A stretch of DNA of 23,277 nt. Origin: a virus. This document shows positions 667 to 22,648 of the stretch, piece after piece. Positions within the stretch are counted from its first letter, which is position 1. Each line of letters opens with the position of its first letter. The notes below the pieces were generated by a model, which was not told where the DNA came from, did no database searches, and saw nothing but the letters and a program-made list of their open reading frames with translations. The stretch is taken from UHGV virus genome UHGV-0070450; one strand, 5' to 3'. The position numbers and the translations under genes were made by a program.

Positions 667-831
667 TTACATATTCTTGATGATCGCGTCACCAAATTCT
701 GAACATTTCAGCAGTTTAGCGCCCTCCATCAGACGTTCGAAGTCATAGGTTACGGTCTTGGCGTTGATTGCGCCTTCCATACCTTTAACAATCAGGTCAG
801 CCGCTTCAGTCCAGCCCATATGGCGCAGCAT
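667..831 (-). pseudogene. icd: 3'-terminal fragment of isocitrate dehydrogenase gene (icdC-like); prophage attachment-site remnant
   Basis: Minus-strand translation [54 protein letters not shown] matches the C-terminus of Icd. Similarity stops abruptly at about 831, where non-icd AT-rich DNA begins. Confidence 0.8.
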
Positions 832-972
832 TAGATTTAGAAAATTATTATATCCAATTGAATTAAAACAATTTTATACTTAACGAACATCTAAACTTGT
901 TTTTTTACCTTCACCATAACTCGCTGATTTTGTATAGTTTACGTAGCGTTTTGATAACCACTTTATGGCAAA

Positions 973-1302
973 ATGGAGGTTCGCTTGAAAACTTCTGTTC
1001 TTATCCAGAAATTAATGGAAATTGACAAAACTGTACTATTCGATGCGGACGTAGTGACCGGTGAGGAATGGTGGCCAACCCCGATTTCTCGTGTTTATCA
1101 CAATCCGCCACATACTTATGTAGAATTTTAAACAGGTGAACAATCTCAAAATGAATCTGACGAGCTAAGTGTTTATAGCGAATTACAAATTTGTGCACAT
1201 CGAATGATGCAAATTAGAGATTTTGTGCAATCTAACGAGGGACTGAAACCTGAAAAAATTGTTTCGGAAATAAACATTCAAATTGAACGTATTAAAAAGT
1301 GA
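973..1302 (+). pseudogene. Unassigned ORF interrupted by an in-frame TAA (1129-1131); possible decayed cargo gene
   Basis: ATG at 973 gives MEVRLKTSVLIQKLMEIDKTVLFDADVVTGEEWWPTPISRVYHNPPHTYVEF, then TAA, then the same frame continues for 56 more codons (TGEQSQNESDELSVYSELQICAHRMMQIRDFVQSNEGLKPEKIVSEINIQIERIKK*). No obvious Shine-Dalgarno; function unknown. Confidence 0.2.
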
Positions 1303-1367
1303 TGGCTGAAGCAATTCTGAAACACTAATTCATATTCTATGTTATTCATACCAATGTGGATTTAACT

Positions 1368-1401
1368 CCCACCAACCCACCAACCCACCAACCCACCAAC
1401 C
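1368..1401. repeat. Tandem octamer repeat (CCCACCAA) x 4.25
   Basis: Direct read: cccaccaa cccaccaa cccaccaa cccaccaa cc, immediately upstream of the ATG at 1402 and 257 bp upstream of the restriction gene start. Confidence 0.9.
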
Positions 1402-1657
1402 ATGATTGGGCGGCGCAAGAAATTAATATCAATTAAAACAGCAAGTTATCAGTCTAAACAGAACACCAACGGGATGGAGGAGAGACAAAAAATATCCAAT
1501 GAAACCGTAGCGCGTCAGCATTCAAAAGCGGGGTTTCTTATTTTTACTTCACCAGTAACAAATACACTGTATCATAACTACATAAAAATGATTGTTCTGA
1601 CTCAGATGAATTTCTTACTCTTGTGGAATGTCACTTAATGTTATTTATAGGTAAACA

Positions 1658-3547
1658 ATGAAATCCGAAACGCTAACCATCCAGCAAATTTTCCAAAATC
1701 AACGACAATATCGTGTTCCATTCTATCAACGTGCCTACGTATGGACGCAACGAAACCAATGGTCAGCTTTGTTGGAGGATATCTTCGAAAAAGCACAGAG
1801 CCGACTTTCGGGAACAAAACCAACCCCTCATTTCCTCGGCGCGGTGGTGCTGGAACCTCAACTCAAAAACAGCTTGTTAGGTGTAGATACCATACATATT
1901 ATTGACGGCCAGCAACGTTTAACCACTCTTCAATATATTCTGGCATCCATTCGATTATCATTGCGTGCTACAGGCCTTTCTGAACTGGAAGGGTTAGTAT
2001 TGACTTGCTTGAAAAATACAAACGAAGCAACGATGAGAAATAAAAAGGTAGAATGCTTCAAACTGTGGCCAACTTTTCGAGATCAAACTCATTTTATTCA
2101 AAGTCTTAATGTTGATAATATTGACGATCTCCGTAATGTATTTTCTGATAGCTTCACGCAACATGGTACGTTACGTAAACATTTCAACCACCCGCCGTCA
2201 CTAGAGGCATTATGGTTTTTTACTGAAGCCTTTATAAAATGGATTAAAATAGAAAACCACTCACCACAAGAAAATGCTGTAGCACTAATTGAGGCTGTCT
2301 TGACGGATCTGAAACTGGTAAGCATATTTCTCGAAGCTGAAGATGATGCCCAAATAATTTTTGAAACATTAAATGGGCGAGGAGCGGAACTTCATGCAAC
2401 GGATCTTATTCGCAACTATATCTTTATGTGCGCTGAGCATGAAAATATTAATGCTATTGAATTATATGAAAATGAGTGGAAGATCTTTGAAGATAAATAC
2501 TGGTCGGAAAAGCAACGCCGTGGACGTATTAATAAACCACGCATGGAGTGGCTTGTACATGCGACATTGCAATCAGAAAGGCAGCGTGAAATTGATCTGT
2601 CTCGCCTTTACAATGAGTATCGTGATTATGTAAGTAAGGACTTGCCTTCACAACGAGCAGATCTGCAAGTAAAGCGCCTCAAACAATATGCATCACAATA
2701 TAAAGAATTGGTTGGTGGTTTTGGCACAACCCCCATCTCACACTTTGGACATCGCATCGCAGCCTATGATGTGACGACACTCTATCCGCTTGCTTTGTTC
2801 ATTTCGATAGCTAACATCGCCGATGATGAGAAAGCAGCCATGTATAATGATCTTGTCTCCTACGTAGTACGAAGATCCGTATGTGGCCTGACGCCAAAGA
2901 ATTACAACAATGTATTTATGAATGTATTGCGACACTTGTCTAAAACGGAAATTTCCAGTGTTGAGTTACGTAATATCCTCAATAGCTTAAATGGCGAAGC
3001 CTCACGTTGGCCTGGGGACTCAGAATTTCTCAACGCTTGCATCAATGCTCCACTTTATCCTGGCAGGCTCGACGCACCGAAAATGCGCTCAATGTTAACG
3101 GAACTTGAAAGAGAACTTTGTCGCCAAGTGAAGACAGAAAAGCCTGATGTTCCAAATCTTTCTAATCTCGATATCGATCATCTTATGCCTCAAAGTTGGT
3201 ATTCCTGTTGGCCTCTCGAAAATGGTCATATGGTGACAAATTCAGATGCTACGGTAATGAACCAAATTGTTCTGTCTGGAACCGATCTTACCCCTGAACA
3301 GCTACTGGTAAGGAAACGGCAACAAGCGATAGCTACGTTGGGAAATCTAACTTTGCTTAACCTTAGCGTAAACCGTTCCGTTCAGAATGCTGTATTTCTG
3401 AAAAAACGTGATGCTCTCATCGTCCACACCAATCTACGACTGAACATACCACTTATACTTAAGGATAAATGGGATGAGAGTGAAATACAGGAGCGAGGTA
3501 AAAAGTTGGGGGAAATTGCATTGAAAGTATGGCCAAAATACGATTAA
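1658..3547 (+). CDS. GmrSD-like type IV (modification-dependent) restriction endonuclease; DUF262 (ParB-like NTPase) fused to DUF1524 (His-Me finger nuclease)
   Basis: 629-aa ORF. N-terminal part has RVPFYQRAYVW and IIDGQQRLTTL (DGQQR motif typical of DUF262); C-terminal part has DIDHLMPQSW ... NLTLLNLSVNRSVQN ... KKRD (H/N/N pattern typical of DUF1524). Sits where e14 carries mcrA. Confidence 0.75.
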   Translation: MKSETLTIQQIFQNQRQYRVPFYQRAYVWTQRNQWSALLEDIFEKAQSRLSGTKPTPHFLGAVVLEPQLKNSLLGVDTIHIIDGQQRLTTLQYILASIRLSLRATGLSELEGLVLTCLKNTNEATMRNKKVECFKLWPTFRDQTHFIQSLNVDNIDDLRNVFSDSFTQHGTLRKHFNHPPSLEALWFFTEAFIKWIKIENHSPQENAVALIEAVLTDLKLVSIFLEAEDDAQIIFETLNGRGAELHATDLIRNYIFMCAEHENINAIELYENEWKIFEDKYWSEKQRRGRINKPRMEWLVHATLQSERQREIDLSRLYNEYRDYVSKDLPSQRADLQVKRLKQYASQYKELVGGFGTTPISHFGHRIAAYDVTTLYPLALFISIANIADDEKAAMYNDLVSYVVRRSVCGLTPKNYNNVFMNVLRHLSKTEISSVELRNILNSLNGEASRWPGDSEFLNACINAPLYPGRLDAPKMRSMLTELERELCRQVKTEKPDVPNLSNLDIDHLMPQSWYSCWPLENGHMVTNSDATVMNQIVLSGTDLTPEQLLVRKRQQAIATLGNLTLLNLSVNRSVQNAVFLKKRDALIVHTNLRLNIPLILKDKWDESEIQERGKKLGEIALKVWPKYD

Positions 3548-3569
3548 TGCAATTAATAAAATGATTATA

Positions 3570-3593
3570 GCGGCCTTACATTAGTAAGGCCGC
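3570..3593. terminator. Stem-loop between convergent genes (restriction gene and pin remnant)
   Basis: Perfect 10-bp inverted repeat GCGGCCTTAC / GTAAGGCCGC with 4-nt loop; AT-rich flanks; the pin-remnant stop codon lies in the loop. Confidence 0.4.
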
Positions 3594-3772
3594 AACTCAC
3601 TATTAAATCCTTTAATTTGCATCAAGAACAGCACTGTCAGCCCTAGGCTCTCGGACTTTGTACCGCTTATCTTGTCTTCAAAAATCAGCTCGCATCCTGC
3701 ACAGTTCAACGCATTACGTTGTAGATCGATTTTCTGGTCATTTGTTGATACGCAAACATAGCCAATAAGCAT
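3581..3772 (-). pseudogene. pin: Pin/Gin/Hin-family serine DNA invertase, truncated after about 41 conserved residues
   Basis: From the ATG at 3770-3772 (GAGGGAG Shine-Dalgarno upstream): MLIGYVCVSTNDQKIDLQRNALNCAGCELIFEDKISGTKSE matches the invertase N-terminus, then diverges (SLGLTVLFLMQIKGFNSELRPY*). The conserved YVRVS motif reads YVCVS here. Confidence 0.75.
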
Positions 3773-3798
3773 GGTAGCTCCCTCTGACAAAAGCAGGA

Positions 3799-4188
3799 AT
3801 GATGCCATTTTCTCGTTATTTCTGCATTTTCATAAACGTTGGTTTGGGAGAATTATCTCTGGCTGGCACTGCATCGGGTGTCATTGGTCTGAATGGGTAT
3901 GTAACGATTCCGTTAATTATTTCAGGTTCCCGGAGAACACTGATTATTCAGTGGGGGCAGGCGAGATTTGGTGGGTCTGGTGGTGAAGATGCCGGATATC
4001 TTAATGATTTTCCTTTTGCCTTTCCGTCAGCATGTTATGGAATGATAGTTAGTCATGTGGGGCATACACCTTCAGGCGCAGGAATCCTGTCGGCTTCTGC
4101 AATTACATCAAATCAGTTCCGCGGTTTTTCAAGCATAGCGACTGCTGCAAATGCTGTATTAGGTCGTTATATCGCTATAGGGGGTTAA
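3799..4188 (+). CDS. Alternate tail-fibre C-terminal domain (promoterless copy inside the invertible segment)
   Basis: Contains TLIIQWGQARFGG, sharing the LIIQWG motif and a 17-bp identity (CTGATTATTCAGTGGGG) with the minus-strand fibre ORF. The track start at 3799 is probably not a true start because the ORF runs through the crossover site. Confidence 0.5.
   Translation: MMPFSRYFCIFINVGLGELSLAGTASGVIGLNGYVTIPLIISGSRRTLIIQWGQARFGGSGGEDAGYLNDFPFAFPSACYGMIVSHVGHTPSGAGILSASAITSNQFRGFSSIATAANAVLGRYIAIGG
3827..3852. other. Candidate invertase crossover site (hix/gix-like 26-mer), pin-proximal
   Basis: ttttcataaacgttggtttgggagaa; its reverse complement TTCTCCCAAACC... resembles the hix half-site TTCTTGAAAACC, and it pairs as an inverted partial repeat with 5267-5292. 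Confidence 0.4.
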
Positions 4189-4189
4189 T

Positions 4190-4627
4190 ATGTTTTATAG
4201 TCCATCATTAAACATTTTTGTGAATCCTGCGCTTAAGGATGATTACATTAATGCAAATTCATGGCCAGATGATGCTCTGGCTGTCAGTGATGATGTTTAT
4301 AATGAATTTGCAATCAATACGCCCCCATATGACAAAATTCGTGTTGCAGGAAAAAATGGATTACCCACATGGGCACTAATACCTCCACCATCGCATGAAG
4401 AACTTATTCAACAGGCAGAATCAGAAAGGCAATTATTGCTTAATCAGGCCAACGAATACATGAACAGTAAACAATGGCCCGGTAAAGCCGCTATTGGTCG
4501 TCTGAAAGACGAGGAACTGGCACTATATAATTTGTGGCTGGATTACCTGGACGCACTGGAACTGGTGGATACCTCCAGTGCTCCAGATATTGAATGGCCT
4601 ACACCTCCGGTAACTCAGGCCAGCTAA
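4190..4627 (+). CDS. Tail fibre assembly protein (Tfa family)
   Basis: 145-aa ORF immediately after the fibre segment, ending ...TSSAPDIEWPTPP, which parallels the ...TSTAPEISWPELP end of the convergent copy. Confidence 0.7.
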   Translation: MFYSPSLNIFVNPALKDDYINANSWPDDALAVSDDVYNEFAINTPPYDKIRVAGKNGLPTWALIPPPSHEELIQQAESERQLLLNQANEYMNSKQWPGKAAIGRLKDEELALYNLWLDYLDALELVDTSSAPDIEWPTPPVTQAS

Positions 4628-5024
4628 TCTCAGGAGCCGTCGAAGTGTCGACGGCTTTTACTTCTTTTTTGTAGTCCATCCAGGCGGATAGTTTTTCTTT
4701 ATCTGTACTGCTGATATCACCAAGCATTAATTCCACTCGCCAGTCAGCTGTGACATTATCGGCATGAGCAAGTAACTGCATTCGCTGATTTTCAGCACGT
4801 GCGACATAATCAATCGCCGGAGATTTCAGTACCGGTAAACCATTTTCATCTGACGTGATTAATTTACCCCCTTCCTGCTGTCCGGCAATTAATTCATTGT
4901 ATAAGTCTGTACTTATCTCAACAATGTCAGCAGGCATGTCGCTGTTTATACCATCAAAGAAAAAACCATTAGTCGATTTTGAGAAATAAATCATAGATAT
5001 ACCTATACACCGATTGCTACCCAA
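4599..5024 (-). CDS. Tail fibre assembly protein (Tfa family)
   Basis: 141-aa ORF; its 3' end overlaps the convergent tfa by about 29 bp, as in invertible G/P segments. Confidence 0.7.
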   Translation of the reverse strand: MGSNRCIGISMIYFSKSTNGFFFDGINSDMPADIVEISTDLYNELIAGQQEGGKLITSDENGLPVLKSPAIDYVARAENQRMQLLAHADNVTADWRVELMLGDISSTDKEKLSAWMDYKKEVKAVDTSTAPEISWPELPEV

Positions 5025-5524
5025 AAACAGGACCTTTCATATTTGACAATTTCTCCCTGAGATATACCGCCAACAATTATATAGAACTGTGATTTGGTGA
5101 TATCAGAACAGTTCGCAATGCCCATTGCAGATATACCCGCCACCGACGTTGTATGTGGTACAGCCAACAGCGCAAGTGAACGACTTGGGAATGTTACCGG
5201 GTAAGTCACCGTATAGTTTGATGCTCCACTGACTATACCCCACTGAATAATCAGACCTGAAGGGAGTTTTTGAAAACCCGTTGATGAAAGTGAACTGGCA
5301 AACGCCGCCATATCCGGAATTTGGTTTTGCTCGTTACCCACATTTCGTTTTGCCGCTTCTCCCAAACCAAGGTTTTGAAGAGCCGTTTTCACCGTGCCGT
5401 CCGGTTTGTCGCGGTTCGGGTATTCGTGCGTTTCCACACGACGACCGGTTCCCGCACTTTCTTCTTCAACCTTAAACGGCACACCGCGAAATGACGCGTC
5501 CTGAAGTCTGTCTTTCCACGTCAT
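5003..5524 (-). CDS. Chimeric tail protein: Mu gp43/N-like DNA-circulation N-terminus fused to a tail-fibre C-terminal domain
   Basis: Likely start MTWKDRLQDASFRGVPFKVEEESAGTGRRVETHEYPNRD (GGAG Shine-Dalgarno 5 nt upstream) resembles the DNA-circulation N-terminal signature; C-terminal half (GLIIQWGIVSGASNYTVTYPVTF...) is fibre-like. The track ORF extends to 5566. Confidence 0.55.
   Translation of the reverse strand: MTWKDRLQDASFRGVPFKVEEESAGTGRRVETHEYPNRDKPDGTVKTALQNLGLGEAAKRNVGNEQNQIPDMAAFASSLSSTGFQKLPSGLIIQWGIVSGASNYTVTYPVTFPSRSLALLAVPHTTSVAGISAMGIANCSDITKSQFYIIVGGISQGEIVKYERSCFWVAIGV
5267..5292. other. Candidate invertase crossover site (hix/gix-like 26-mer), distal
   Basis: tttttgaaaacccgttgatgaaagtg; left half TTTTTGAAAACC matches the recalled hix half-site TTCTTGAAAACC at 11 of 12 positions; lies inside the tail-fibre coding sequence. 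Confidence 0.4.
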
Positions 5525-5539
5525 ATAAACTCCGTACAT

Positions 5540-5561
5540 AAAAAATCCCACCGGAGTGGGA
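5540..5561 (-). terminator. Stem-loop with T-run just after the tape measure stop (minus strand)
   Basis: Minus strand reads TCCCAC-TCCG-GTGGGA followed by TTTTTT, between the tape measure stop (5585) and the next start (5524). Confidence 0.4.
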
Positions 5562-5584
5562 CTCATTAACAGATTAATTTTTCA

Positions 5585-20255: not shown

Positions 20256-21431
20256 ATGGATATAACTTGTTTAGAATGTGGCAATGTTCTTGACGACCCA
20301 ACTGTAGCTTGCGATAAATGCGGTGCCACGCCTCATGTTGTAGTGCTGGGCAAACAATCGTACTTTCCTATTGGTGCTGTAACAGCAAATCTTGAAAAAA
20401 ATGATTCAAGAGCATTTGATTATCGATTAGGTGAAGTTTGGGATCTAAAAAATGAAGTCACATCTGAATTCATAACCAGAATTGAGAAAAAATTTAGCCG
20501 AAAAAACAAATTTCATAACTTCCTAGACTCAGATCACAACCCTTCATCCATTCCTACGATCCTAAAAAAATACATTAATAAAAATAATGAATTCATTGAT
20601 TTATCTAGAGCTATAATAGAGAAGCTTAAACATAATGCTAATAACGAATCGAGAGTTGCCCAACTTCAGGGGGGGAGCGTTGTTTTCATCCACTATAAGT
20701 CTACCGAACCAGAGGATTTGGGGAAACTTCTAATCGTAATGGTTGATAAACAAAGCGCCTATGACTTTGATTCGGATAAGTTGACCCCAACAAGATTAAA
20801 TCCAATTAATACCGATGCCTTACGGCAGGCTGCGATGTTCGATTTAACTTTATTCGAAGCCAGTTATCCAGAAAACAAGGGTGACTCATATGTACATTTC
20901 TTGCAAGGTAAATCTAAAAGCGATTTTTTCAAAGACTCATTAGGTTGCCGACATGATTCGGACAATAAAAGAAGCATTCAGCAATTATTCAGTGCTATAG
21001 ATATTTTTGCTAGTAAAAACTCACTCGGTCGTGTACTGCGTGATACTATTGACAATGAAGTTAAATCCTTACTGGAAAAAAAATCAAAAGATAAACACGG
21101 AAATAAGTCCGTTAAGATAGAGGATATTTCAAAAATAATTGACTCATGCCTGACTGATTCACACAAATGTAAGGGAACGTTTGTCGATTTTGTTAATCTT
21201 AATGGTTTCCAGATTGACCCTCAATTTGAACCAACTCCTAAAGCAGCTGAAAGCGCGCTTACAATTGAAGTGGCAGATAACGACAATAATTTTAAGTTGA
21301 AAATAATGCGTGGAGCTATTGGAGACGAAAAGTCAAATAAGCCTGTAATTCTCACTGACAACAAATGCGAAATTGTGATAAAATTGAGTCAGGCAAATTA
21401 TGATGAACTCAAAAGATATAGAGACAGCTAA
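20256..21431 (+). CDS. Cargo protein: N-terminal zinc ribbon fused to an NdpA/YejK-like (NA37 nucleoid-associated) domain
   Basis: 391-aa ORF. N-terminus has CLECG...CDKCG (two CxxC pairs). The central region (GGSVVFIHYKS..., AMFDLTLFEASYPENKGDSYVHFLQGKSKSDFFKDSLG...) aligns by eye to E. coli YejK (GGFVLFCHYRY..., [38 protein letters not shown]...). AT-rich, opposite strand to the phage genes. Confidence 0.65.
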   Translation: MDITCLECGNVLDDPTVACDKCGATPHVVVLGKQSYFPIGAVTANLEKNDSRAFDYRLGEVWDLKNEVTSEFITRIEKKFSRKNKFHNFLDSDHNPSSIPTILKKYINKNNEFIDLSRAIIEKLKHNANNESRVAQLQGGSVVFIHYKSTEPEDLGKLLIVMVDKQSAYDFDSDKLTPTRLNPINTDALRQAAMFDLTLFEASYPENKGDSYVHFLQGKSKSDFFKDSLGCRHDSDNKRSIQQLFSAIDIFASKNSLGRVLRDTIDNEVKSLLEKKSKDKHGNKSVKIEDISKIIDSCLTDSHKCKGTFVDFVNLNGFQIDPQFEPTPKAAESALTIEVADNDNNFKLKIMRGAIGDEKSNKPVILTDNKCEIVIKLSQANYDELKRYRDS

Positions 21432-21433
21432 TA

Positions 21434-22648
21434 ATGACAATTGCTGATGACTTATCAAGATTAGCGCAGATTATTAACGGAGCCTCAAGCAGAGTTGAGG
21501 GCTACTACACTGTCATAAGTCTTGAAGAAAGCATTGTTATTGTAAATAGTTCTGAAATAATTAGACTGTTACAATCTATAGGTTATAAAAAGGCAACAAC
21601 CTGCATCGAAAATAATGAAATTTGGCTAGATCGCCAAGCTTCATCTTGGGATGATGCTATAATTTATGAGAATGTTGAGTCTTTTTGGTCTAGAGTAAAC
21701 ACCCAAAACGCTCTTCCGAAAAATTATATCATCGGAACGCCGTTAATACTCCCTACTTCTAAGAATGAAAGCATCGAAAAAATCCATATTTTCTTTATGT
21801 GGAAAGATATCCTTTCATTAATTTCTGATCATCATAACAGTGACTGCTCTGTCTTATTTTTCACCAATGAAGACAAAAGTTATACAGTCGAACTCACGCA
21901 TTTTTTACAATATAGCGAGATTAATCGCTTATCGAACTCGTCTCTTAAATATGAAATTATAAAGGAGCTTCTCGACACAATAAAAATCAATGATTTACAC
22001 AAAAGCGAGCGCAAGCTCGTTATACGCTCAGCCATAAACGAAGTATTTAAAGCAAATGGTACGTTCAATTTCTTTGACTTGCTTAACTCTACTGAACTCG
22101 TCAGGAAAAAATATGATGAACTATATGAGATTTACACAAAGAGGTTTTCTGTAAATAAAATTCTTAACGAACTCGATGAGAAAAATCTTGAGTTCACGAG
22201 TAAAATTAACGAATTCATATCATCTAATCAGACAAAAGCATTGACTATTCCCGGTGCATTAATAGCAGCTGGTGGCTTAGTGAAGGCTAATGAAACAACC
22301 GAAGCAATATTGATTATCGCAGGACTTTGGATGATAAAAAAAGTCAATTACATTTCTATTGAGATATTCAATGAAACATTCGACAACTTACGTTCTCGAG
22401 TGGAGTCCGCTTTCGATAAGTATTTAAAGTTTGAAGAAAATAAAGAAATCAAAGATAATGCAGATAGTATTAAGAGTAGCATTACAGGTTTGATTGATAA
22501 AGCTAAAAAAAGGATGAGAACTGTTAAATATCTCGCATCAGCCATGTTTTATGGAGGCCTTATTTACGTTGGATATAAACAGTTCCCAGTCTTTTTTGAA
22601 AAATCGGCAGTAAATCTATTTTATTTTTTATGCCATACTATAAGCTAA
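21434..22648 (+). CDS. Cargo protein of unknown function with two predicted C-terminal transmembrane helices (candidate membrane effector)
   Basis: 404-aa ORF starting 2 nt after the upstream stop (translationally coupled); hydrophobic stretches LTIPGALIAAGGLV / AILIIAGLWMI and YLASAMFYGGLIYVGY; no recognisable catalytic motif; AT-rich. Confidence 0.65.
   Translation: MTIADDLSRLAQIINGASSRVEGYYTVISLEESIVIVNSSEIIRLLQSIGYKKATTCIENNEIWLDRQASSWDDAIIYENVESFWSRVNTQNALPKNYIIGTPLILPTSKNESIEKIHIFFMWKDILSLISDHHNSDCSVLFFTNEDKSYTVELTHFLQYSEINRLSNSSLKYEIIKELLDTIKINDLHKSERKLVIRSAINEVFKANGTFNFFDLLNSTELVRKKYDELYEIYTKRFSVNKILNELDEKNLEFTSKINEFISSNQTKALTIPGALIAAGGLVKANETTEAILIIAGLWMIKKVNYISIEIFNETFDNLRSRVESAFDKYLKFEENKEIKDNADSIKSSITGLIDKAKKRMRTVKYLASAMFYGGLIYVGYKQFPVFFEKSAVNLFYFLCHTIS

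Follow-up and report, generated by a model that had tools for sequence, protein, structure and literature searches.

A truncated e14-type pin pseudogene beside an orphan fibre switch that has inverted in at least one Escherichia coli clone

The inversion systems Gin/G of phage Mu, Cin/C of phage P1 and Hin/H of Salmonella each carry a 26-bp inverted crossover site, located about 67 bp before the start of the invertase gene, and an enhancer within the first ~90 nt of the gene, and each encodes its own active enzyme. Work by Kutsukake et al. in 2006 reportedly found that Fin of Fels-2 acts in trans on hix in Salmonella. The Hin enhancer is 65 bp long with a Fis site at each end, and lies about 100 bp from hixL in the N-terminal coding region (PMC3798978, PMC2724282). 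For the P segment of the E. coli K-12 prophage e14, the invertase of which is PinE, PinQ of prophage Qin was found to invert the segment in trans when overproduced, and a pinE deletion mutant was reported locked although pinQ and pinR were present (PMC12529663).

The DNA analyzed here was a stretch of 23,277 nt from the virus genome UHGV-0070450 (hereafter 'the window'). It resembles the PinE/P segment of e14 in its place (icd/icdC, beside ycgX), in its crossover-site sequence (TTCTCCCAAACCAA…) and in the way its two fibre C-termini and two chaperones are arranged, and its pin 5′ end and upstream region were 90% identical in DNA to K-12 e14. Unlike in e14, pin is no longer Pin from codon 42-49 and carries R7C, a GmrSD-type gene stands where mcrA stood, and the prophage far exceeds K-12 e14 in size, with genes for head, tail and lysis, but has no baseplate genes. 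The inverted site lies where it does in the Mu, P1 and Salmonella systems, and a candidate enhancer can be placed within the 5′ end of pin by collinearity; those three systems encode an active enzyme, whereas this system has the cis elements only. The locus is a degenerate member of the Pin/Gin/Cin/Hin family of Fis-dependent fibre switches, consisting of cis elements and cassettes without the enzyme.

The window begins in ycgX, passes a C-terminal duplicate of icd (icdC, the prophage end, attR; 667-831, minus strand) and then enters an e14-like prophage, and the locus is the icd-proximal end of that prophage. In K-12 the order at this end is pinE, mcrA, icdC. Two genes found between ymgL and icdC in K-12 and in most strains, iraM and ymgK, are absent here (616-661), and the 46 bp at that place match both sides of the iraM/ymgK stretch in K-12, which suggests loss by recombination between short repeats.

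The program-made reading frame at this locus (3581-3808) begins at an in-frame ATG further upstream; pin itself starts at the ATG at 3772. Translated from there on the minus strand, the product opens MLIGYVCVS and reads in full MLIGYVCVSTNDQKIDLQRNALNCAGCELIFEDKISGTKSE directly followed by SLGLTVLFLMQIKGFNSELRPY, then a stop. Over residues 1-41 it differs from K-12 PinE (NC_000913.3) only by R7C, N14K and T15I, and this part is 80-98% identical to Gin and Pin. Similarity to PinE continues weakly to residue 49 (tblastn: 3772 to 3626, 84% identity, E = 8e-23), and the last window position with DNA homology to K-12 pinE is 3637. Identity in blocks along the gene fell from 0.95 (nt 86-123) to 0.69 (nt 124-136) and 0.50 (nt 137-152). 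The best match among solved structures was Gin (4m6f, E = 2e-16, residues 1-46), and the Pfam Resolvase profile was matched at 30.1 bits (cut-off 23.3), with only positions 2-54 of its 145 covered. The match to Pin/Gin is far above chance. The pin remnant was delimited as 3626-3772 on the minus strand, Pin-identical over codons 1-41 bar the three substitutions and fading to codon 49, with a non-Pin tail (…FLMQIKGFNSELRPY) and a TAA stop (3581-3583) at 3581-3625, in DNA of the incoming cassette. A preliminary description of this DNA, made from its letters, had called the gene a decayed pin with a truncation and a YVCVS motif, and translation, alignment to PinE and Gin, Pfam and tblastn all bore this out. 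It had also placed the end of Pin similarity after about residue 41, which is right for the strong match, but the end is not sharp and the breakpoint is blurred over residues 41-49.

The nucleophile is present, Ser9 being encoded by TCA at 3746-3748 (minus strand) and aligned to Ser9 of Gin. The catalytic Arg two residues ahead of it, which is Arg in PinE, Gin and gamma-delta resolvase, is replaced by Cys: codon 7 is TGC (3752-3754, minus strand) where K-12 pinE has CGC. In Pin/Gin numbering this residue is 7, and it corresponds to Arg8 of gamma-delta resolvase and Hin. A complete catalytic domain (about 100-140 residues, with the E helix) is missing from the remnant, and the helix-turn-helix C-terminal domain is absent, PinE residues 50-184 giving no significant tblastn match anywhere in the window. 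The leftover PinE matches spanned 11-25 residues at E ≥ 1.1, and by the same search no second invertase is encoded within the window. Because the catalytic Arg is replaced and most of the catalytic domain and all of the DNA-binding domain are gone, the predicted product cannot be an invertase, and the feature is a pseudogene of an e14-type Pin serine invertase. A functional small protein was considered as a reading of the remnant and rejected, as nothing spoke in its support.

The frame ends in a perfect 10-bp hairpin with a 4-nt loop (gcggccttac/gtaaggccgc, 3570-3593), 23 nt downstream of the GmrSD-like gene, and the TAA, the complement of 3581-3583, sits inside the 4-nt loop, as had been noticed before. 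The fold was strong (-20.6 kcal/mol, z = -4.9). The hairpin was also considered as an intrinsic terminator and rejected: despite the strong fold it failed a consensus scan, and no T-run follows it.

The DNA at 842-3636 has no counterpart in K-12 e14 and occupies the place of the 3′ part of pin and of mcrA. It carries a single gene, which lies on the plus strand at 1658-3547 and converges on pin, and the product of which matched PF03235 (GmrSD_N, 116.8 bits) and PF07510 (GmrSD_C, 72.3 bits) and, over positions 1-629 of 629, the PADLOC model mREase_IV (PDLC03655, 1524 bits). With both GmrSD domains present and the mREase_IV model matched end to end, as expected of the GmrSD / BrxU family, the product is predicted to be a GmrSD-family (DUF262 + DUF1524) type IV modification-dependent restriction enzyme, which would cleave modified (hmC or glucosyl-hmC) DNA. 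The gene fills the slot of McrA in K-12 e14 and is unrelated to McrA in sequence. In this arrangement a different type IV restriction cassette has taken over the mcrA slot together with the 3′ three-quarters of pin. A sub-module of the locus (1447-3852) is common to prophages at other integration sites.

The distribution of the junction was examined with a query (3450-3852) that runs from the end of the cassette through hairpin and remnant to the proximal site. It was covered to at least 80% in 288 of 5,426 complete E. coli genomes, at 95.8-100% identity among the 60 matches listed, and the junction was present in a further 16 IMG/VR contigs; it was not found in GTDB species representatives, and the module of GmrSD-type gene and remnant was found in no isolated phage of the phage collection searched. 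RefSeq labels the remnant as 'recombinase family protein, incomplete, missing C-terminus' (pseudogene). Since all 23 of the 23 readable remnants shared an identical junction and tail, a single origin of the truncation followed by spread is indicated by the alignments. That the source strain has an intact pin, broken only by an assembly or sequencing error, a prospect raised in the preliminary description, has a negligible probability: the one point in its favor is the window's deletion junction at 5403-5408 (see below), absent from every other genome searched, against which the pin junction recurs base for base in the 16 IMG/VR contigs and in the 288 independent complete genomes, which many laboratories produced on many platforms.

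At a second site, in strain 14EC001, the module (1447-3852) adjoins paoCD. In 14EC001, AH65 and PT62 it was seen at prophage sites other than icd, beside quite different fibre cassettes. In the AHM8C strains, DAM and PCN061 the module was decaying further: insertions of IS3 and IS1 have cost such modules half the segment as well as the N-terminal end of the GmrSD-type gene, and elsewhere the latter gene had an internal stop in DAM and a frameshift in PCN061.

A comparable case is phage vB_EcoM-606R2 (ON470579.1), in which an e14-type pin is likewise cut short by a cargo gene at the prophage end. Its invertase gene (2311-2625, minus strand, 104 aa) is Pin-like to about residue 88 and has Arg7 intact, and it directly abuts a 281-aa gene without a Pfam or PADLOC match. 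To judge from these differences the truncation there is an independent event, and the clipping of pin by cargo turnover is not unique to the window's lineage.

Codon 7 varied behind the identical junction. Several lineages have Arg there (CGC or CGT). The window-type remnant has Cys as TGC, 14EC001 has Cys as TGT, which was separately derived from a CGT allele, and Phe (TTC) was read in AH65, PT62 and two IMG/VR contigs, all of which carry the Lys14/Ile15 of the window type. Because remnants with the same junction and Arg exist, the alleles place the truncation first and the change of Arg to Cys afterwards; the latter arose at least twice, with a further step from Cys to Phe. The substitution had earlier been given as a sign of decay alongside the truncation. 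It is seen at residue 7, but it is secondary.

Three independent changes in codon 7 (CGC to TGC, CGT to TGT, TGC to TTC) were counted among roughly nine amino-acid changes, which exceeds the expectation from chance at a rough probability, from a sample of few alleles, of about 0.01-0.05. All five differences between the window allele and an Arg-type remnant fall within 9 nt of a 15-bp block (nt 22-36) that was unchanged in most alleles, with one change each in the E4-type and Z1322HEC0006 remnants. In E. coli, neutral mutation is biased from GC to AT. The three changes in codon 7, the five differences flanking the conserved block, and the survival of the entire stretch equivalent to the enhancer, which ends some 50 bp short of the breakpoint, might all be expected if selection kept the remnant as a cis element and the DNA around the proximal Fis site had been re-tuned. 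This explanation was nevertheless judged unlikely, as a neutral GC-to-AT bias or a small gene-conversion patch gives the same pattern, and few alleles were sampled.

The cis elements of the switch are preserved. The pin-proximal 26-bp crossover site (3827-3852; minus strand TTCTCCCAAACC AA CGTTTATGAAAA, core 3839-3840) and the distal 26-bp site (5357-5382; TTCTCCCAAACC AA GGTTTTGAAGAG, core 5369-5370) are inverted relative to each other, with a 19-nt arm that is 95% complementary, and both are intact. They enclose an invertible segment (3853-5356) with two alternative fibre C-termini and two fibre assembly chaperones: a fibre C-terminus with Gp53-like_C (3799-4188, plus strand) followed by a chaperone with Caudo_TAP (4190-4627, plus strand), and an alternative fibre C-terminus, again Gp53-like_C, in the 3′ part of 5003-5566 (minus strand) with its own Caudo_TAP chaperone (4599-5024, minus strand). 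The Pfam content of the segment, Gp53-like_C twice and Caudo_TAP twice, is thus arranged in opposed orientations. An adjacent active invertase gene is absent, and only the remnant stands in its place.

The candidate enhancer (3688-3751, pin nt 22-85) is collinear with the 65-bp Fis-dependent enhancer of hin/gin and was placed from two papers on Hin (PMC3798978, PMC2724282) and by collinearity from the site centre (3839/3840) and the pin start (3772). Its end blocks were 100% (nt 22-36) and 87% (nt 71-85) identical to Mu gin, and between the end blocks pinE and gin were only 71% identical. Fis sites within 3688-3751 are presumed from the hin sequence together with collinearity. The whole of 3688-3751 is retained and ends about 50 bp before the breakpoint, and the retained 5′ DNA of pin would, on this collinearity, work as an enhancer. 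A full pinE deletion removes the stretch collinear with the Fis enhancer, a point undiscussed in PMC12529663, and the natural truncation keeps it.

Whether the segment still inverts was addressed by comparing genomes with the same remnant. Strains 22-245 and 22-250 (chicken meat, Gifu) are one clone, with genomes of 5,073,334 and 5,073,329 bp and the same locus coordinates, and the remnant in each is exactly of the window type. The flanks of the locus were 100% identical over 4,553 + 2,496 bp, and the 1,552 bp exactly between the sites were reverse-complemented from one to the other, with no other change. A natural inversion has occurred in a clone that carries the remnant. The preliminary description had concluded that the adjacent segment should be frozen in its present orientation, and as a general statement this is not supported, given the inversion between 22-245 and 22-250. 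The alternate orientation was also sought among relatives, where both orientations were found and were common among junctions 99.5-100% identical: twelve such genomes were in the window orientation, and seven had the alternate junction with the displaced cassette elsewhere in the record, the orientation in each being judged from compared counts of match places. The alternate junction was present in DAM and ANT too, but there the prophage is degraded by IS1. An identical remnant allele was found in both orientations. Within three other clonal pairs (PT62/LP5-1, AHB3/AHB4 and AHM8C212RI/AHM8C160RI) no difference in orientation was seen. PCN061 and DAM were tried as a further clonal pair and rejected, being unrelated on comparison although their genomes are similar in size.

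Invertase-like loci were counted per chromosome with chimeric queries that joined the cassette anchor to the 3′ parts of pinE/gin, with or without pinQ. Strains 22-245 and 22-250 each had two further Pin/Gin-type loci and one PinQ-type locus, counts that do not imply intactness. Every alternate-orientation genome with a listed Pin/Gin count had at least one Pin/Gin-type locus (L65 was outside this set). Among the genomes with junctions 99.5-100% identical to the window's, five had no Pin/Gin-type 3′ region (EC28, A8, A42, S87 and CFSAN061769), and 5/5 were in the window orientation; among genomes with a Pin/Gin-type gene, 7 were in the window orientation and 6-9 in the alternate one. The association of orientation with Pin/Gin presence was borderline (one-sided Fisher P = 0.04-0.09), with small numbers and shared ancestry uncorrected. 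The pattern fits switching where a compatible enzyme is present and locking where there is none, and the inversion was likely catalyzed in trans by the invertase of another element. An invertase elsewhere in the genome had been allowed for from the outset as the exception to freezing, and with further invertase-like loci in both 22-245 and 22-250 it becomes the likely explanation. As with PinQ/PinR on the e14 P segment (PMC12529663), the segment would be flipped by the enzyme of another prophage. The loss here is natural and found in 288 genomes, and the case for trans action is comparative only. In the PinQ/PinR and Fin cases, by contrast, the resident invertase was intact or had been removed experimentally.

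It could be held instead that the loss of pin locks the segment everywhere, the two orientations being old polymorphisms fixed before or at the truncation. The remnant is certainly inactive, the five genomes without a Pin/Gin-type gene are all in one orientation, the three clonal pairs show no difference, and the K-12 pinE deletion mutant was reported locked; each of these agrees with freezing. The locked mutant counts in addition against the trans reading and fits a low native activity in trans, though it could also fit the loss of an enhancer with the deleted coding region. Set against a clean inversion between the sites in one clone, and against the same remnant allele in both orientations, freezing everywhere was considered improbable. 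That the orientations came to differ without a site-specific invertase, through RecA-dependent recombination at the inverted repeats or because the segment was replaced horizontally, was considered more improbable still. Segment replacement does occur, as quite different fibre cassettes are found beside the same remnant across lineages; in the clonal pair, however, the same DNA is flipped, with breakpoints inside the crossover sites and nothing else changed. The inverted repeats are moreover just 19-26 bp, which makes them poor substrates for homologous recombination, and the alternate orientation, where an invertase count was listed, was always accompanied by other invertase-like loci.

The account preferred here, of an orphan switch worked in trans, starts from a single ancestral event in which pin from about codon 42-49 on, and the DNA up to the prophage end (in K-12 the mcrA stretch), was replaced. 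The incoming cassette brought the GmrSD-family type IV restriction gene and its hairpin, so that the pin reading frame now enters cassette DNA for 14-22 codons and ends in the hairpin loop. The catalytic Arg was lost later (CGC to TGC) as neutral decay. What was left is a remnant unable to recombine DNA, with the cis elements kept: both crossover sites, proximal and distal, and the opening ~136 nt of pin, a part of the gene that holds the Fis-bound enhancer in hin/gin. Such an orphan switch would be static in a cell without a compatible invertase, and would still invert where a Pin/Gin-type, possibly a PinQ-type, invertase of another prophage is made. Taken as a whole, with the pseudogene, one swap event, the later loss of Arg and the orphan switch worked in trans, this account was considered probable.

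In the window itself the prophage has decayed beyond the switch. By the structure of the left flank (iraM and ymgK missing) its nearest relatives were S87, EC28, A42, MS1657 and VTB96929v. Compared with S87 it has a 5,130-bp deletion, the junction of which lies at a 6-bp microhomology (GGTTTG, 5403-5408), 21 bp outside the distal crossover site, so that the site survives. The deletion takes out the fibre 5′ end, ymfQ and the baseplate genes, and fuses the first 56 codons of a DNA-circularisation gene in frame to the fibre C-terminus (ORF 5003-5566, minus strand). This junction was found in 0 of 5,426 complete E. coli genomes and in none of the GTDB species representatives. The prophage therefore cannot build a tail, and the switch, live or not, has ceased to serve a phage because the 5.1-kb deletion removed the fibre N-terminus and the baseplate genes. 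The segment may well be frozen in the window's own strain, which is plausible because three of the five nearest relatives, S87, EC28 and A42, have no Pin/Gin-type gene and are all in the window orientation.

Two further features of this prophage were recorded. Two genes (20256-22648, plus strand) that separate the lysis cassette from the Q antiterminator gene lie opposite in strand to the phage late genes; the first encodes a 391-aa NA37-like nucleoid-associated protein (PF04245) and the second a 404-aa protein without a family match. Neither gene matched PADLOC, and together they may form a moron pair. Beside the Rz, endolysin and holin genes lies a homologue of the Bor lipoprotein (PF06291; 18327-18665, plus strand).

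The remnant is real and ordinary, and as it is already flagged by RefSeq in hundreds of genomes, its description adds modest value by itself. A bolder reading takes the 5′ fragment of pin as a retained control element of an orphan switch for a fibre, or for an anti-phage Stf, that is run by the invertases of co-resident prophages; this was judged unlikely. If it were true, repeated cargo swaps would clip pin, lineages would survive where the crossover site and the Fis enhancer had been spared, and the flanks of the enhancer, codon 7 included, would be free for re-tuning. Cargo genes appear to turn over at this prophage end, with possible damage to a neighboring gene: pin was lost when one type IV restriction gene took the place of another.

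An e14-type fibre switch that has lost its own invertase is present in about 5% of complete E. coli genomes, and in at least one clone it still flips. Since an invertase-less switch can still flip, the presence or absence of an adjacent invertase gene is a poor predictor of a live switch. Inversion of the P segment in K-12 has been reported to block adsorption of T2. If that report is true, such orphan switches may have a bearing on resistance to phages.
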